Origin: Nanobdellota archaeon
GTDB lineage: Archaea > Nanobdellota > Nanobdellia > Pacearchaeales > GW2011-AR1
DNA: 64,000 nucleotides
Reading direction: 5' to 3'
Assembly (NCBI GenBank): GCA_038045945.1
Contig: JBBSXC010000003.1
Span: 64,001 to 128,000 of the forward strand
A program made the translations under genes and the position numbers. Positions 10,192 through 32,350 of the stretch are shown here, one piece after another; the first letter of the stretch is position 1; each line of letters starts with the position of its first letter. The notes under the pieces are model-generated. The model made no database searches and had not been told where the DNA came from. It was given only the letters and a program-made list of their open reading frames with translations.

Positions 10192-11787
10192 ATGACGACT
10201 ACAGATGCTCCTGTAGATATGGATGTAAAGAATAAAGTATTCTATGAAGAAGTAAGAGCTAGTTTAGGAGGAAAATTACCATTAAGTTTAGGAAGTAGCA
10301 GATTAGAACAAGGAGAGGGAGGAAGACTAGTAGTAGTATTCCCTAATGAAGTATACAAAGCAAGAGCTAATGATTACGGTCAAGAACTAAGAAGAGGACT
10401 AAGAAAAGTAGGGGGAGGAGAGGACTTATACTTAGGAGTTGACAAAAATATGCTTGATTCAGGAAGAAGACTAGCATCATCATACCTGTCAGGATTAGAA
10501 GAAGCAACAAACACAGAACCTGCAGAAAAAACAGTAAGAATTGTTGTTAGACCAAAAGACGAACTATTAGTGGTTAGGTCGCAAACAACAAAACAAAAAT
10601 CATTAGAAACAACAGCAACAAAATACCAGTTATTACCAAAACCAGAAACAATAATGAAGTATGAAGGAAACAATTACGCAGTAGACGTAACAAGAAGGAT
10701 AGCAGAATTAGCATCATCGCCAAAAGAAGTAAGAACAAACATAAAAAAAACATTAATTCACGGACCAAACGGGGCAGGAAAAACGGCGCTAGCAACAACA
10801 TTATGCTACAGTTTAGCAGAAGCAGGAATGACACCAGTATATTTGGACGTGCCGGGCCTGTCAGAGTTCTTAAGACATAACGCAAGAATGGCAGCAGCAA
10901 TAGCCGGAATGATGGGAGAACAAAAACCAATAATGAGAGAGTACGGACAATTAGAAAACTTAAGAGAAGCAGACTTATTAGTTTTAGACGGAATAGAAGC
11001 AACACTAAGGGGAGAAAAAGAAAACCGTCCGGGAGTAGAGGCAATCCTAAGAGCAGCAATAGACGCATCAGTAGCAAGAAACATACCTGTATTAGCACTA
11101 TACAGGGGGACGGGGGAAACACTCAAAGCGTACATATCAAGAATGAAGTTTGGGGAAGGAGGAAACAAAGACTTAGCAGACAGACTAGAAGAATTCGTAA
11201 GGGTGCCAATGCATTTACCATCAGGAAGAGAAAGAGGAGGACTAATGAAAGACTTACTAATAACAGAACACGGATTTAGCGAGCAAGCAAGCCAAGAAAT
11301 ATCAAGAGCGCTAGGAGAAAACTTTGGAAGCGAATCAACCTTGAGAGAAATAAGAGGATCAGTAGCATCAGCAGTAAACTACATAAATTTTGTTGGAGGA
11401 GAAAAACCAGACTATTACACACTAGCAAGTAAAGCACTAAAAGGAACGGCAGGACTGCAAGGATTACTATTCGGAAAAAAAGTAGATACAGCAGAATTAT
11501 TCAAAGAAATAGAAAGAAGAACAGGAATAGCCAAAGCAAGCATGACAGGAAGAAAAGGAACAAGCGACGTGATAAACGCAAGACACGCATACGCAGCAAT
11601 AGCAAGAAAAGATGAAAGTTTAGGAGTAAGCGCAATAGCAAAACTATTAGGAAAAGATCATGGAACACTAAACAGCGCGTATGAAAGAATAGACCGGGTG
11701 TTAGGTTCAACAGAACAAGAAAAATTAAGTCTTAGAGACAAAGAATTATTAAGACTAATAAAAACACTAGAAGAAGCAAAAGCTTGA
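10192..11787 (+). CDS. dnaA: DnaA-like AAA+ replication initiator homolog (divergent)
   Basis: Domain I-like LVVVFPNE; Walker A GPNGAGKT; Walker B LLVLDG; 'DLADRL' Arg finger; sensor II 'TLREIRG'; domain IV 'ARHAYAAIARK..SLGVSAIAKLLGKDHGTLNSAYERI'. Confidence 0.8.
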   Translation: MTTTDAPVDMDVKNKVFYEEVRASLGGKLPLSLGSSRLEQGEGGRLVVVFPNEVYKARANDYGQELRRGLRKVGGGEDLYLGVDKNMLDSGRRLASSYLSGLEEATNTEPAEKTVRIVVRPKDELLVVRSQTTKQKSLETTATKYQLLPKPETIMKYEGNNYAVDVTRRIAELASSPKEVRTNIKKTLIHGPNGAGKTALATTLCYSLAEAGMTPVYLDVPGLSEFLRHNARMAAAIAGMMGEQKPIMREYGQLENLREADLLVLDGIEATLRGEKENRPGVEAILRAAIDASVARNIPVLALYRGTGETLKAYISRMKFGEGGNKDLADRLEEFVRVPMHLPSGRERGGLMKDLLITEHGFSEQASQEISRALGENFGSESTLREIRGSVASAVNYINFVGGEKPDYYTLASKALKGTAGLQGLLFGKKVDTAELFKEIERRTGIAKASMTGRKGTSDVINARHAYAAIARKDESLGVSAIAKLLGKDHGTLNSAYERIDRVLGSTEQEKLSLRDKELLRLIKTLEEAKA

Positions 11788-25510: not shown

Positions 25511-26221
25511 TTATGCTAACTCAATAATTTTGTTTTTGCCTTCACCTTTACGAACAATAAGACCCTTCTTCTCAAGCTCTTGTAAAACCCTGAAAAATGA
25601 TGATTTAGGAATAGAAGAAAGAATTCTCAAATAAGAACTACTAATCCTCTTCTTATCCTTAATAATACCAATAAGCAAACGCTCACTACTATTAAGAGTA
25701 GGCTCAATGATAGAAATCTTTTTATCACGAGTAAGACGACGATTATTAACAGGCTTTAAAAAAACTTTTCCTTTAGAAAAATAGTAGTAAGATAAACTAA
25801 TAATTATTAGAGCAGAAATAATAATTATTAATAACAAAAAAGTTTTTTCATCATCAAAAACATAAGTTATTTGGACACTTCCTTGAGAATAAACAACAAT
25901 GTTCCTAACGCTTGTGGAAACCTCACCATTAGTACTCTTAATTATAACATTACGAGGTAAAAAAACCTGTATTTCAGAATTATCAATACTTAAAGAAAAA
26001 TTCCAAACACTACCAACTTTACTCGTAAGATCATAAGAAATACCACGAACTTTACCATCAATGGAAGTAACGCCCAAAGGAAGAGGAACATCACTATCTG
26101 AAGAACCTAAAAAAGTAGATTTACCAGAAGAATCAACATGAACAACAATTTCAGAAGAAGCAAGAACTAAACCAGTTAATAATGACAAAATCACCACCAT
26201 AATAAACATTATCTTCATCAA
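25511..26221 (-). CDS. membrane-anchored winged-helix transcriptional regulator
   Basis: Signal peptide, extracellular beta domain, TM, C-terminal wHTH (LNSSER...IPKSSFFRVLQELEKKGLIVRKGEGKNKII). Confidence 0.8.
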   Translation of the reverse strand: MMKIMFIMVVILSLLTGLVLASSEIVVHVDSSGKSTFLGSSDSDVPLPLGVTSIDGKVRGISYDLTSKVGSVWNFSLSIDNSEIQVFLPRNVIIKSTNGEVSTSVRNIVVYSQGSVQITYVFDDEKTFLLLIIIISALIIISLSYYYFSKGKVFLKPVNNRRLTRDKKISIIEPTLNSSERLLIGIIKDKKRISSSYLRILSSIPKSSFFRVLQELEKKGLIVRKGEGKNKIIELA

Positions 26222-28216: not shown

Positions 28217-28717
28217 ATGAAAAGAGTCAACCACACAATAATAATTGTAACAATAATAGCTTTACTATCAATAGCACTCTACATAAACAGCGATAATAAA
28301 GAAAAAACACAAATAATTAACGACCAAGAAGCAAAAACAACAAAAACATTTACATCTCCAACATACATAACTTACAAAAATTTTGAGCCAGTAATGAGCA
28401 AAATGAGCATTATTAAAGACGTACCAGAAGAATACCCGATACAACTAAAATTTTTCAATTTTAACACCGGGATTAGACAATGGGAAAAATCATACATAAT
28501 TTCTTCGGCGGGTGTTAAAGAAGGAACGATAGAAAACCCGGAATTAACAGTTGTTCTAAACTCAAAATACTTACAAGGACTAACAACAGCAAACTTTTGC
28601 TCAGCAATAAGCCTAGCAAAAAAGAACGGAGACTTAGGAATAGAATCAGAATCATCAAGCATAAGCCTAGCAATAAAGTATAAATCACTAATAAAACACA
28701 AAGACTGCTTAGGATAA
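28217..28717 (+). CDS. membrane-anchored protein, SCP2-like
   Basis: N-terminal TM; 'VKEGTIENPELTVVLNS...AKKNGDLGIE' resembles the SCP2 fold. Confidence 0.6.
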   Translation: MKRVNHTIIIVTIIALLSIALYINSDNKEKTQIINDQEAKTTKTFTSPTYITYKNFEPVMSKMSIIKDVPEEYPIQLKFFNFNTGIRQWEKSYIISSAGVKEGTIENPELTVVLNSKYLQGLTTANFCSAISLAKKNGDLGIESESSSISLAIKYKSLIKHKDCLG

Positions 28718-28724
28718 AAAAAAT

Positions 28725-29285
28725 TTAAGCCCCTGCTAACTCTCTTCCTCTATATGTTTCTCTAATTCTCTCCCTAGCCCTGTGAACTCTTGACATAACA
28801 GTGCCTGGAGGTATCCCAAACTTTTCGGATATTTCTTTACAACTCATTTCTCCAACAGATTTAAGTCTTAAAGCCTCAAAATATAAAGGGTCTACACCTT
28901 TAGAATAATTATCAACAGCATCTCTTTCCTCATAAGACATTTCACCATTATGCCCTTCATAATTTTTTTCTGAGGCAGCTATTCTCTCTAAAGAATCATC
29001 ATTAACCGGACCAAGCTTCCCACGCTTCATATGAGTTAACAAGTCTCTCTTAACAATTGTTTTAAAAAGAGCCTTAAAACTCGTATTAGGCATAACATTA
29101 CGACTCGTTTTAAACAAAGCGGTATTGGCAATCCATTCTGCATCACTAACCTCTACCTTCCCATAAGTGCTCCTGCTAAAATCTCTAGCATAATTCATAG
29201 CCAAAGCCATGTGTTCAGTGATCATTCTTTCTCTTTCACTATCAGTGAATAATCCTTCATTCTTGTAACTACCTAATGATGACAT
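28725..29285 (-). CDS. ECF-type sigma-70 family factor homolog
   Basis: Region 2-like 'HMALAMNYARDF...DAEWIANTALFK...SFKALFKTIVKRDLLTHMKR'; region 4.2 'LRLKSVGEMSCKEISEKFGIPPGTVMSRVHRARERIRE'. Confidence 0.85.
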   Translation of the reverse strand: MSSLGSYKNEGLFTDSERERMITEHMALAMNYARDFSRSTYGKVEVSDAEWIANTALFKTSRNVMPNTSFKALFKTIVKRDLLTHMKRGKLGPVNDDSLERIAASEKNYEGHNGEMSYEERDAVDNYSKGVDPLYFEALRLKSVGEMSCKEISEKFGIPPGTVMSRVHRARERIRETYRGRELAGA

Positions 29286-29309
29286 AAAAATGTCAAGATT
29301 TTAGGGTTT

Positions 29310-30062
29310 TTAAGCTTTTATTTTCTCAAAAAGTTTTGTTCCAATAAACATTGAAAGAACAACTAGGTCTAAAACAATTATTAAGTCAAGCCAAATACTG
29401 AAGTGAGAAACACCACCAAGAGCAGCCCTAAGGCCATCAATACAATAAGTTAAAGGATTAAGATAAGCAACAACTTTTAGAGCAGTAGGAGCAGAATCAA
29501 TAGGAAAGAGAGCGCCGGACAAGAAAAATAGTGGCATAATCAAAAAATTAATTATTAGAGGAAAAGCTTGCATGTCCTCTAAACGAGTTGCAATAGCAGT
29601 ACCAATAGCAGTGAATAATAACCCCATCATAACCATAAACAATATAGCAACAGGCAAAAGAGACCAATTAGTAACTTTAAAACCAACAAGTAAAGAAATA
29701 GCTAATATGAACACACCTTGAAATATTGAAACTGTCGCACCACCAATTGTTCTACCAAACATAATCTTCCACCTAGGAACAGGAGCAACTAGTGTTTCTT
29801 TAAGAAAACCAAACTGCCTATCCCAAATAATTTCAATACCATTAAACATAGCAGTAAACAAAATAGTCATAGCAATAATACCTGGAGCTAAAAACTGAAT
29901 GTAACTACCACCAACAGCTTTTTGAAAAATAGAGCCCATACCAAAACCCAAAGCTAACAAAAAAAGTAAAGGCTGACCTAAAGAACCAATCATTCGAGGC
30001 TTAGAACGCCAATACTTCTTAAGTTGACGAAGCCACATAGCATAAATGGGAGAAGTACTCAT
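29310..30062 (-). CDS. ABC-2 type transporter permease
   Basis: YIQFLAPGII, WDRQFGFLKETLVAPV, FLSGALFP, NPLTYCIDGLR. Confidence 0.93.
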   Translation of the reverse strand: MSTSPIYAMWLRQLKKYWRSKPRMIGSLGQPLLFLLALGFGMGSIFQKAVGGSYIQFLAPGIIAMTILFTAMFNGIEIIWDRQFGFLKETLVAPVPRWKIMFGRTIGGATVSIFQGVFILAISLLVGFKVTNWSLLPVAILFMVMMGLLFTAIGTAIATRLEDMQAFPLIINFLIMPLFFLSGALFPIDSAPTALKVVAYLNPLTYCIDGLRAALGGVSHFSIWLDLIIVLDLVVLSMFIGTKLFEKIKA

Positions 30063-30868
30063 CTTTTTCCCCTCCACATCTTAGCACCCTGACGTAAAAC
30101 ATCAATACTATTAGCTTCCTCTTCCCTAATAGAATGACCAGTAAGTTTAAGGAAAGCCTCTTCTAAAGTTTGAGAATTCGTTTCTTTCTTCAAAGACTTT
30201 GACGAACCACTAGCAACAATTTTTCCATGATCAATAATAGCAATTTTGTCAGCAATCTTATCAGCCTCTTCCATATAATGAGTAGTTAAAAAAACAGTCA
30301 TTTCTTCATCATTCATCAATTCCCTAATGTACTTCCATAAATGATTTCTAGTTTGAGGGTCAAGACCGAGAGTAGGCTCATCCAAAAAAAGAATTTTAGG
30401 GTGATGAATAAGACCACGAGCAATTTCAAGCCTCCTCTTCATCCCGCCAGAGAAGGTTTTAACAACCAAATTCTTCTTATCCCATAAACCAACAAATTTT
30501 AGTAATTGCTCAATCCTCTTCTTTCTTAAACTTCTAGGAACATTATAAAGAATAGCATGAAAATCCATGTTTTCAATAGCAGTCAAATCATCATCAAGAC
30601 TAGAATCCTGAAAAACAATACCAATAGAAGAACGAACCTCATCCTTACCGCTCTTAGGATTATGACCATTAATAAGAACCTCACCATGAACGTAATCAAG
30701 AATAGTAGTAAGCATCTTAATAGTAGTTGTTTTACCAGCACCATTAGGACCTAAAAAAGCAAAAACAGAACCCCTCTTAACACTAAATGAAACATTATCA
30801 ACAGCAGTAAAGTCACCAAACTTCTTAGTAAGACCCTTAACAGAGATAATATTATCAACCTTAACCAT
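30059..30868 (-). CDS. ABC transporter ATP-binding protein (DrrA-like)
   Basis: GPNGAGKTT, FSGGMKRR, LFLDEPT, TTHYMEEA. Confidence 0.95.
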   Translation of the reverse strand: MVKVDNIISVKGLTKKFGDFTAVDNVSFSVKRGSVFAFLGPNGAGKTTTIKMLTTILDYVHGEVLINGHNPKSGKDEVRSSIGIVFQDSSLDDDLTAIENMDFHAILYNVPRSLRKKRIEQLLKFVGLWDKKNLVVKTFSGGMKRRLEIARGLIHHPKILFLDEPTLGLDPQTRNHLWKYIRELMNDEEMTVFLTTHYMEEADKIADKIAIIDHGKIVASGSSKSLKKETNSQTLEEAFLKLTGHSIREEEANSIDVLRQGAKMWRGKR

Positions 30869-31003
30869 GATAAAAACAAACAAATTAGCAGTTATTAAAG
30901 ATTATGAACATGAGGAGCATAACAAAGAATAATGAAATATTCATCATTAAGAAGTAGTTACTAAACGAAAGCCTTAAATAATGTTTAATGATCTAATAAA
31001 TTG

Positions 31004-32350
31004 ATGGTTATTAACAAGAAAGTATTGATACTAGCACTTTTAATGATTAGTTTCGTATTTTTAGCAAGCCAAGTAATGTCTGAATCATTCGTGACTTATT
31101 GCAACGTTCAGTACCCCTTACTAAACAACTTTTTATGGTATAGCAACGTTAGTGGAATTATTAATGTCTCATGGAATGCAACATCACAATGTGACCTATT
31201 TGAAATAAAACTTGCAGGACCATCATTTTTCAATAGTAATTTAACAAACATAGCAGGAAACGGGACAAGAACATATATGTGGGACACAAGAGACTTACAA
31301 AACGGTCAAGGGTACAGATTAGAAGTTTGGGGAAGAGACTCACCAAACCCAACAATTTGGTCAGTTGCAGGGGCAGGATCACTAAAAATCAACAACACGC
31401 TCCCAATAATAACAATAAAAAATAGTACTATAAGAACTAATAATATCTCAGGAATAAACCATTACTCATACTTAGAATCAATAAGTAACAAGAACCAATC
31501 ATTAGGAATTAATTGTAACACAGGATCAACACTGGGAATTGGCGAATCATCAATAACTTGTAACTCAACAGATCAAGCTAACAACACAGAAACAAAAAAT
31601 TTCACTATAACAGTAATATTTGCCATAGATTATAACAAAACAGAAGCACCGACAACCACTATAGAGTTCAATAACATACCAAACATAACAAATATTGACC
31701 TAAGAGCAATTGAATATAACGAAACAAACCTATCAACAAACGGATTCTTAACAACAGGTAAATATTATGATATAACATCAAACTTAACTAATGGAGAATT
31801 CAACGCAACAATAACATTCTCATACCTTGACTCTGATAATGACTCAATAATTGATAACACAACAATTAACGAAACAGAAATAAGCGTTTATTATTATAAC
31901 AATCAAACATCAAATTGGACAAGCATACCAATTATTAATAGAGACACAGAAAACAACACCGTAACAATAAAAGTTGACCACTTCACACAATTCTCAATGA
32001 TGAAAACTCCACCAATAAGCAGTAACCCCCCAGCGCCAAGCAGCAGCGGAGGAGGGGGCGGAGGCGGTGGAGGAGGCAGCGGAGGAGGAGGAAGTAGCTC
32101 AAGAAATAGGAGTGCTAACATCACAAGCAATAACTCAGTAATTAATAACTCAATAAGTAATAATCAGAATAGTTCACAAAATAACAACACAGAAAGCGAA
32201 GAAGCTAACAAAGCGCCCATAACTGGCGCAATTGTAGGAACAGGCACAAAAATAAAGAGAAATTTATGGTTAGGAACAATAATAATATCACTACTAGCAA
32301 TAGGAATACTCATAAAAAGTCATTCTAAAAGCATAAAAAAGAAGAAGTAG
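31004..32350 (+). CDS. secreted cell-surface glycoprotein with Gly/Ser linker and C-terminal anchor
   Basis: Signal peptide, many N-x-S/T sequons, 'VDHFTQF', poly-Gly linker, APITGAIVG then TM and Lys tail. Confidence 0.75.
   Translation: MVINKKVLILALLMISFVFLASQVMSESFVTYCNVQYPLLNNFLWYSNVSGIINVSWNATSQCDLFEIKLAGPSFFNSNLTNIAGNGTRTYMWDTRDLQNGQGYRLEVWGRDSPNPTIWSVAGAGSLKINNTLPIITIKNSTIRTNNISGINHYSYLESISNKNQSLGINCNTGSTLGIGESSITCNSTDQANNTETKNFTITVIFAIDYNKTEAPTTTIEFNNIPNITNIDLRAIEYNETNLSTNGFLTTGKYYDITSNLTNGEFNATITFSYLDSDNDSIIDNTTINETEISVYYYNNQTSNWTSIPIINRDTENNTVTIKVDHFTQFSMMKTPPISSNPPAPSSSGGGGGGGGGGSGGGGSSSRNRSANITSNNSVINNSISNNQNSSQNNNTESEEANKAPITGAIVGTGTKIKRNLWLGTIIISLLAIGILIKSHSKSIKKKK

Follow-up and report, generated by a model that had tools for sequence, protein, structure and literature searches.

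Sigma factors are a hallmark of bacterial transcription initiation, and the genes of ECF sigma factors are commonly, though not universally, co-transcribed with that of a cognate anti-sigma. PhyR of the Alphaproteobacteria, in which a receiver domain is fused to a sigma-like module that acts by binding the anti-sigma NepR, offers a precedent for an ECF-like module that keeps its fold and abandons polymerase and promoter work. Archaeal initiation runs on TBP, TFB and TFE, as outlined in a review (PMC7289017), and against that background it is puzzling that many DPANN genomes carry intact sigma genes.

Such genes (family fam00359) were described by Castelle et al. 2021 (Front Microbiol 12:660052, PMC8204110) in DPANN archaea, above all in Woesearchaeota; in the passages of that paper that deal with them, mis-binning is ruled out, no anti-sigma is reported and the mechanism is called unclear. 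Its Table S3 gives fam00359 as 221 sequences with a median of 280 aa, annotated K03086; its share is 38% among 90 Pacearchaeota and 39% among 196 Woesearchaeota. The ECF type (K03088) appears once in Data_Sheet_1 of the same paper, in Table S6, without a family. In a 2025 paper, viruses of DPANN archaea are mentioned as bearing rpoS-like genes, and no functional study of sigma in DPANN, Woesearchaeota or Pacearchaeota is evident from titles and abstract openings.

With sigma-70 in DPANN archaea already published (2021), the gene analysed here is a divergent, degenerate ECF-type addition to that set. Like the members of fam00359, it belongs to the sigma-70 family, lies on a genuine DPANN contig and comes from the same lineages. 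Unlike them, it is ECF-like and 186 aa long, not of the primary-sigma-like type of about 280 aa; that architecture is matched instead by a 288-aa copy on another contig (C5) of the same genome. Bacterial ECF factors (SigW; M. tuberculosis SigE, SigH and SigD; E. coli sigma-E) share with the window copy their size, the sigma-2/linker/sigma-4 layout, a full-length TIGR02937 match, a near-consensus region 4.2 and domain-wise superposition. The window copy departs from them in residing in an archaeon where no bacterial core polymerase was found, in lacking a Pfam region-2 match and an identifiable anti-sigma while carrying W51, N54, T55 and L73, and in having a promoter that is archaeal and leaderless and not of the autoregulated ECF type.

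The likeness to PhyR stops at the precedent, since PhyR owes its role to receiver fusion and NepR binding, and no receiver domain, NepR or PhyR is found among the Pfam matches of the 186-aa ORF. Small HTH regulators of the region-4/LuxR-GerE type have the same kind of four-helix HTH as the best-kept part of the window protein; they have no sigma-2 domain, whereas the window protein retains the sigma-2 fold in its predicted model.

An ECF-type sigma ORF in a DPANN archaeon

The window, that is, the whole stretch of 64,000 nucleotides analysed, carries the ECF-type sigma-70 family ORF at 28725..29285 on the minus strand, from an ATG at 29285 to a TAA at 28725-28727 and with its frame intact. The NCBIfam model TIGR02937 (sigma70-ECF superfamily) matches it with 57.7 bits against a cut-off of 42.9, aligning residues 17-176 to model positions 2-163 of 165 with both halves in register. 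Two region-4 models of Pfam match: Sigma70_r4_2 covers residues 133-174 at 42.8 bits, above its cut-off of 25.7, and Sigma70_r4 reaches 27.0 bits against a cut-off of 24.1. Sigma70_r2 (PF04542) gives no match even at E<=10. When the N-terminal 105 residues are searched alone, TIGR02937 is the best match (18.1 bits, E 0.0016), with residues 17-89 on model positions 2-71 and in the correct register. Among PDB sequences the N-terminal half alone finds no sigma match, and a search with the full-length protein is headed by SigW, SigR and SigE, each matched in region 4.

At 186 aa the protein falls within the ECF range of about 160-220, and its two helical domains and linker, without regions 1.1 and 3, follow the ECF layout. 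Judged by these comparisons, the ORF is a degenerate ECF (group 4) member of the sigma-70 family in a DPANN archaeon. This agrees with the original prediction, which had called it a sigma-70-like factor of the ECF type with a nearly canonical region 4.2 and an eroded region 2: the superfamily model covers the whole length above cut-off, both region-4 models exceed theirs, and the region-2 model is silent. The opposite reading, a generic HTH attached to an N-terminal half unrelated to sigma-2, is contradicted by the full-length TIGR02937 match, by that of the N-terminal half and by the structure superposition described below. A search against PHROG returned a single match, the generic sigma family phrog_1740 (E 1.5e-11). 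A viral origin was considered and set aside, as this family is generic and seven neighbouring ORFs have no PHROG match.

Predicted fold and domain layout

An AlphaFold2 model was built from an alignment of 70 rows (A1) that joins this protein to 53 hits of the representative-protein search and 16 ECF-sized sigma-like proteins of the same order. Its mean pLDDT is 82.9, and helices are predicted at residues 15-40, 46-62, 70-90, 96-109, 118-128, 133-143, 149-156 and 160-185. The first three make up a sigma-2-like domain (residues 11-91; 29013..29255, minus strand), within which residues 51, 54, 55 and 73 are replaced. A linker of 27 residues follows (residues 92-118; 28932..29012, minus strand), modelled with low confidence and containing the short helix 96-109. 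The remainder is a sigma-4 domain with the region 4.2 HTH (residues 119-181; 28743..28931, minus strand), recognised alike by Pfam, by PDB sequence match and by structure alignment. The string first read as region 4.2 corresponds to residues 148-176, nt 28758-28844 of the minus strand.

With this model as query, Foldseek returned 12 matches at E<=0.001, every one of them to an ECF sigma factor (SigH, SigE, AlgU and a sigma cross-link model). Residues 11-90 superpose on the N-terminal domain of SigE (8b3z_D) with Z 10.6 and an rmsd of 2.3 A over 76 of 78 residues, a comparison to be read knowing that the model depends on a sigma-factor alignment and that Z values near 10 are common among helical folds. 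Residues 12-91 fit region 2 of RpoS (5h6x_A) with an rmsd of 1.9 A over 77 residues. For the C-terminal part, residues 119-180 lie on region 4 of SigD (3vfz_A) at 1.0 A over 62 residues, and the range across solved sigma-4 domains is 1.0-1.8 A. A single-sequence AlphaFold model of residues 1-105 reached a pLDDT of 49.4, too poor for searching, and its helix boundaries resemble those of the A1 model. On the predicted model, then, the N-terminal half keeps the sigma-2 fold.

A worn sigma-2 domain beside a kept sigma-4 domain

In E. coli sigma-70, genetics has shown that an acidic/Gln/Glu patch of region 2.2 touches the beta-prime clamp helices and that a Trp of region 2.3 helps to open the -10 element. 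Residue counts over the 16 archaeal and 53 other aligned homologues of A1 locate the losses of the window copy at four positions that rank among the most conserved in sigma-2, which we take to be the polymerase-contact and strand-opening positions of bacterial sigmas. Position 51 is D or E in 16/16 archaeal and 51/53 other homologues and W here; position 54, Q in 12/16 and 48/53, is N; position 55, E or D in 9/16 and 41/53, is T; and position 73, W in 12/16 archaeal homologues (Y in 4) and 48/53 others, is L. The R found at position 80 recurs in two of the 16 archaeal and 11 of the 53 other homologues; as a common variant it is uninformative. By contrast with these replacements in sigma-2, the majority residue is present at all of the sigma-4 positions E151, I152, G161, T162, V163, S165, R166, R169, A170 and R171.

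Relatives yielded 41 sigma-like ORFs, and a Pfam scan of 25 of them places this pattern in context. Every ECF-sized relative (18/18) has Sigma70_r2 at E<=0.01, 16 of them above the cut-off, and the longer sigma-like relatives scanned have regions 1.2, 2, 3 and 4. The Sigma70_r4_2 scores of relatives span 21.5-53.5 bits, so that the 42.8 bits of the window copy lie in the upper part. PhyR_sigma2 was matched in only two relatives among the 25 ORFs scanned. By sequence, the window copy is the most eroded among the relatives examined, and its wear appears limited to sigma-2.

The host genome and its sigma paralogues

The genome comprises 847 kb in 7 contigs and is 93% complete; the window lies on a 252-kb contig (C3) that also carries the TBP gene. 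The sole RpoB found is of archaeal type and falls under the bacterial cut-off, and no bacterial RNA polymerase alpha subunit was found in the genome. Searching with the N-terminus of RpoA finds relatives whose titles name Candidatus Pacearchaeota, Woesearchaeota or Nanoarchaeota. The host is genuinely archaeal, of the Pacearchaeota/Woesearchaeota type. Two records with an RpoA N-terminus 73-74% identical to that of this archaeon (L171 and L191) are titled 'Bacillota bacterium' and 'bacterium' and are probably mislabelled archaeal bins. The stretch is contained in four DNA runs of one groundwater study, two of them possibly its source, with no RNA run listed.

GC, GC3 and the synonymous-codon score of the sigma gene stand at the 81st, 61st and 46th percentile among 632 CDS. 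The gene is compositionally native, a long-ameliorated resident, and both sigma paralogues are equally ordinary in composition. These paralogues bring the full-length sigma-family matches of the genome to three: the window copy, a 288-aa primary-like sigma (contig C5, 57703-58569, plus strand; Pfam r2 54.2 bits, r4 40.8, with WW and IRTP motifs intact) and a third gene, of 267 aa, in which regions 2 and 3 are recognised (contig C1, 108721-109524, plus strand). Each paralogue sits behind an archaeal-type promoter.

Most archaea split the RpoA subunit into A' and A''. Here RpoA is a single unsplit ORF of 1153 aa with Rpb1 domains 1-5 (contig C1, locus L052, 6832-10293, minus strand), and open frames of 1095-1203 aa are present at the RpoA gene in 39/41 genomes of the order.

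Promoter, terminator and flanking genes

A TATA-like TTAAAAA preceded by an A-rich stretch occupies 29307..29313 on the minus strand, at -28..-22 from the ATG. Over 631 ORFs of at least 150 aa in this genome, TATA-like hexamers begin at -30, -29, -28 and -27 in 87, 144, 132 and 66 cases, respectively, against roughly 4-29 at other positions, and an A-rich stretch at -36..-32 precedes the box genome-wide. Because the hexamers pile up at -30..-27, most genes of the genome look leaderless, with the box near -28 to -23; position counts over its ORFs reveal no Shine-Dalgarno-like signal. On a position-weight score over -36..-22, trained on the 631 genes with the sigma gene among them (a negligible circularity), the sigma upstream region reaches 6.0, at or above 96% of the genes and attained by 0/20,000 random genome positions; its two paralogues score 5.8 and 3.6.

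The TATA-like element that had been noticed upstream of the gene is thus borne out, at the typical leaderless distance of this genome and in the top 4% of its genes. Not remarked at first was that the ORF, which has a promoter signal of its own, is close-packed behind an ABC exporter pair: 24 nt lie between the end of the upstream ABC-2 permease gene and the sigma ATG, and the TAA of that gene (29310-29312) shares bases with the box. We predict a separate, leaderless transcript for the sigma ORF, driven by a strong TATA promoter of archaeal type. At its other end, a run of eight T (28716..28723, minus strand) starting 2 nt past the stop codon reads as a possible archaeal oligo-T terminator. 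Scanning 28600-31100 for bacterial promoters and terminators gave counts at or below shuffled expectation. The classic ECF -35 word GGAAC lies at -57 of the gene's own promoter. Among 851 upstream regions it is not concentrated at any position, and the lead of a GGAAC regulon was dropped, as none of GGAAC, GTTCC, TGGAAC and GGAACA has any position with at least four matches in those regions.

No same-strand gene comes after the sigma ORF; the next ORF downstream is convergent and 166 aa long, and neither it nor a convergent 93-aa ORF has a Pfam family. Together with the lack of any match to the anti-sigma family zf-HC2 in the genome (93% complete), this is in keeping with the earlier remark that no anti-sigma gene lies downstream, though a novel type of anti-sigma is conceivable.

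Upstream, and outside the sigma unit, stand the ABC-2 permease (29310-30077) and a DrrA-like ABC ATPase (30059-30883), both on the minus strand. The ATPase/permease pair is kept at 22 loci in relatives, with a permease identity of 40-67%. A sigma-like ORF within 1.5 kb was found at 0/22 of these orthologous loci (hmmsearch E<=1), hence the sigma/ABC adjacency is not a conserved operon and a functional link to the exporter on that ground was rejected. G001, a genome of the same genus that is 79% complete, is uninformative on synteny, with both the permease and pyrG absent. A distant ABC-2 ATPase/permease pair from a different genus of this family (G103 C1 963-3636; G100 C2) has sigma-like fragments on both sides: an ORF of 129 aa upstream and, directly downstream, a 159-aa sigma-2-only ORF without region 4.

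Orthologues and spread in the order

No orthologue of the window sigma was found among 1.84 billion representative proteins. That search gave 218 matches at E<=0.001, two at 1e-10 and, at 1e-30, only the protein itself; matches are about 25-35% identical, the full-length ones 24-30%. The next best after self (E 1.1e-11) is P0004, of 689 aa. In both it and P0005 (770 aa) a sigma region-4 HTH module occurs four to five times, in P0005 after an N-terminal region 2; the two were rejected as orthologues because their scores are sums over the repeated modules. A further hit, P0034, is an unrelated Ig-repeat protein and was discarded. Within the order, a single-protein search found weak matches in only 3/40 relatives (E 2.8e-7 to 4.3e-4) and none in the same-genus genome, which is 79% complete. 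A word-based search yielded just two weak matches, one of them titled Planctomycetes.

For the family as a whole, TIGR02937 is above its cut-off in 61 of 151 genomes of the order and at E<=1e-5 in 80, where the control genomes passing the cut-off were 10 bacteria and 0/4 archaea. A scan that covered 38 of the 102 ORFs flanking the sigma genes of relatives identified as neighbours proteasome alpha, thermosome, TFB, aEF-2, aEF-1alpha and RpoA domain 5, along with deoxyhypusine synthase, Nre and SBDS. The copies of about 280 aa retain DLIxEGNxGL, YAxWWIRQ and IRxP motifs at just 25-35% identity to the C5 copy, which suggests that selection acts on functions involving the polymerase and DNA.

A candidate DNA-binding regulator and its alternatives

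We propose, with a probability of about one half, that the window protein is a sigma-derived DNA-binding regulator that acts via sigma-4 and is not an initiation factor. The ORF would be transcribed as a leaderless unit from its strong archaeal TATA promoter, and the sigma-4 HTH would bind sequence-specifically at archaeal promoters and so regulate transcription. The sigma-2 domain, its fold retained and its acidic/Gln-Glu patch and conserved Trp lost, may serve as a structural or regulatory module in a protein that would no longer work as an initiation factor. A regulator derived from a sigma and deprived of core binding and melting was one of the two roles put forward in the original prediction; the four sigma-2 replacements with sigma-4 kept fit it, and the role itself, like expression and DNA binding, is what we infer. 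Against such a regulator we count the failure to find a target site, GGAAC being unenriched across the 851 upstream regions, and the absence of an orthologue among the 1.84 billion representatives.

That same absence would be expected of a drifting relic, an old bacterial ECF gene that lost its job and is decaying, with frame and promoter remaining and no function. This is possible, though on balance unlikely. Weak matches in 3/40 relatives and none in the same-genus genome (79% complete), the loss of key sigma-2 residues and a place beside the ABC pair that is unique (0/22 orthologous loci) all agree with it. A relic is harder to reconcile with an intact frame of 186 codons behind a promoter among the best of the genome, and with the lopsided decay: neutral drift should wear both domains, whereas sigma-4 still scores 42.8 bits beside a changed sigma-2.

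More doubtful is a working initiation-type factor, whose sigma-2 would dock on the RpoA clamp coiled-coil, a homologue of the beta-prime clamp helices in bacteria, and redirect or assist opening alongside or instead of TFB/TFE. The two-domain ECF layout with its linker is kept, the genome has three sigma-family genes behind archaeal-type promoters, a sigma passes the cut-off in 61/151 genomes of the order, and other copies in the order preserve canonical motifs at 25-35% identity, all of which would suit an initiation role. The window copy, however, has replaced precisely the contact and DNA-opening positions. On the polymerase side, the RpoA clamp coiled-coil is nearly invariant across 30 genomes of the order, including at least one (G061) without a sigma match, and for this reason offers no sign of co-adaptation. 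A complex prediction of RpoA 1-330 (the clamp, alignment A2) with the sigma (A1) scored 0.00 in both runs, which were made without controls and speak neither for nor against binding. An initiation role would also have to be accommodated beside TBP, TFB and TFE, the factors that archaeal initiation is known to use (PMC7289017).

A bolder extension, which we regard as a long shot, is that archaea of the Pacearchaeota/Woesearchaeota type keep a multi-member sigma toolkit that works on their own RNA polymerase. It would combine primary-like copies, in which the motifs for polymerase binding and DNA opening are intact, with ECF-like copies, all of them domesticated under archaeal leaderless promoters. 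Within it the window copy would have been neofunctionalised and confined to promoter-DNA recognition by sigma-4. If true, this would amount to a hybrid bacterial/archaeal layer of initiation or regulation.

The other role offered at first, a protein directed at a bacterial RNA polymerase, fared badly and is now very improbable; such an enzyme might belong to a partner or host cell. The replaced sigma-2 positions are those that bind bacterial core according to E. coli genetics, known DPANN hosts are mostly archaea, and neither the sequence nor its Pfam matches hint at export; what speaks for such a target is family membership and the view that DPANN archaea are attached to other cells (PMC8204110). 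Bacterial contamination or a mis-binned contig, for which nothing pleads beyond the bacterial family of the protein, is already contradicted by the TBP gene on the same 252-kb contig, by a leaderless TATA promoter and composition that are native and by relatives' sigma genes that adjoin archaeal ones (proteasome alpha, thermosome, TFB, RpoA), and can be dismissed.

Sigma genes as domesticated residents

The sigma genes share the leaderless TATA promoter of their genome and are native in codon usage, which marks them as long-resident and domesticated, not recent imports. One genome offers a graded series, from a canonical-looking primary-like copy to an ECF copy that would keep only the DNA-reading half, which suggests repurposing toward plain DNA-binding regulation, the reading we prefer for the window copy. 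Copies of the ECF type seem to evolve so fast that the window copy has no orthologue at all. For experiments, the canonical copies are suited to polymerase-binding tests and the window copy to DNA-binding tests, and what sigma proteins do in archaea is better approached through the canonical copies.

Two other proteins of the window deserve mention. A 531-aa P-loop/AAA+ protein (10192-11787, plus strand) has a C-terminus weakly like the bacterial DnaA DNA-binding domain, with scores of 46.7 bits for TIGR00362, far below its cut-off, and 26.2 bits against a cut-off of 31.5 for PF08299; it may represent a further information-processing module of bacterial type in the archaeon. Nearer to the sigma gene, a 236-aa protein (25511-26221, minus strand) combines N-terminal and mid-chain hydrophobic segments with a weak C-terminal MarR-like winged helix and could be a membrane-tethered regulator.
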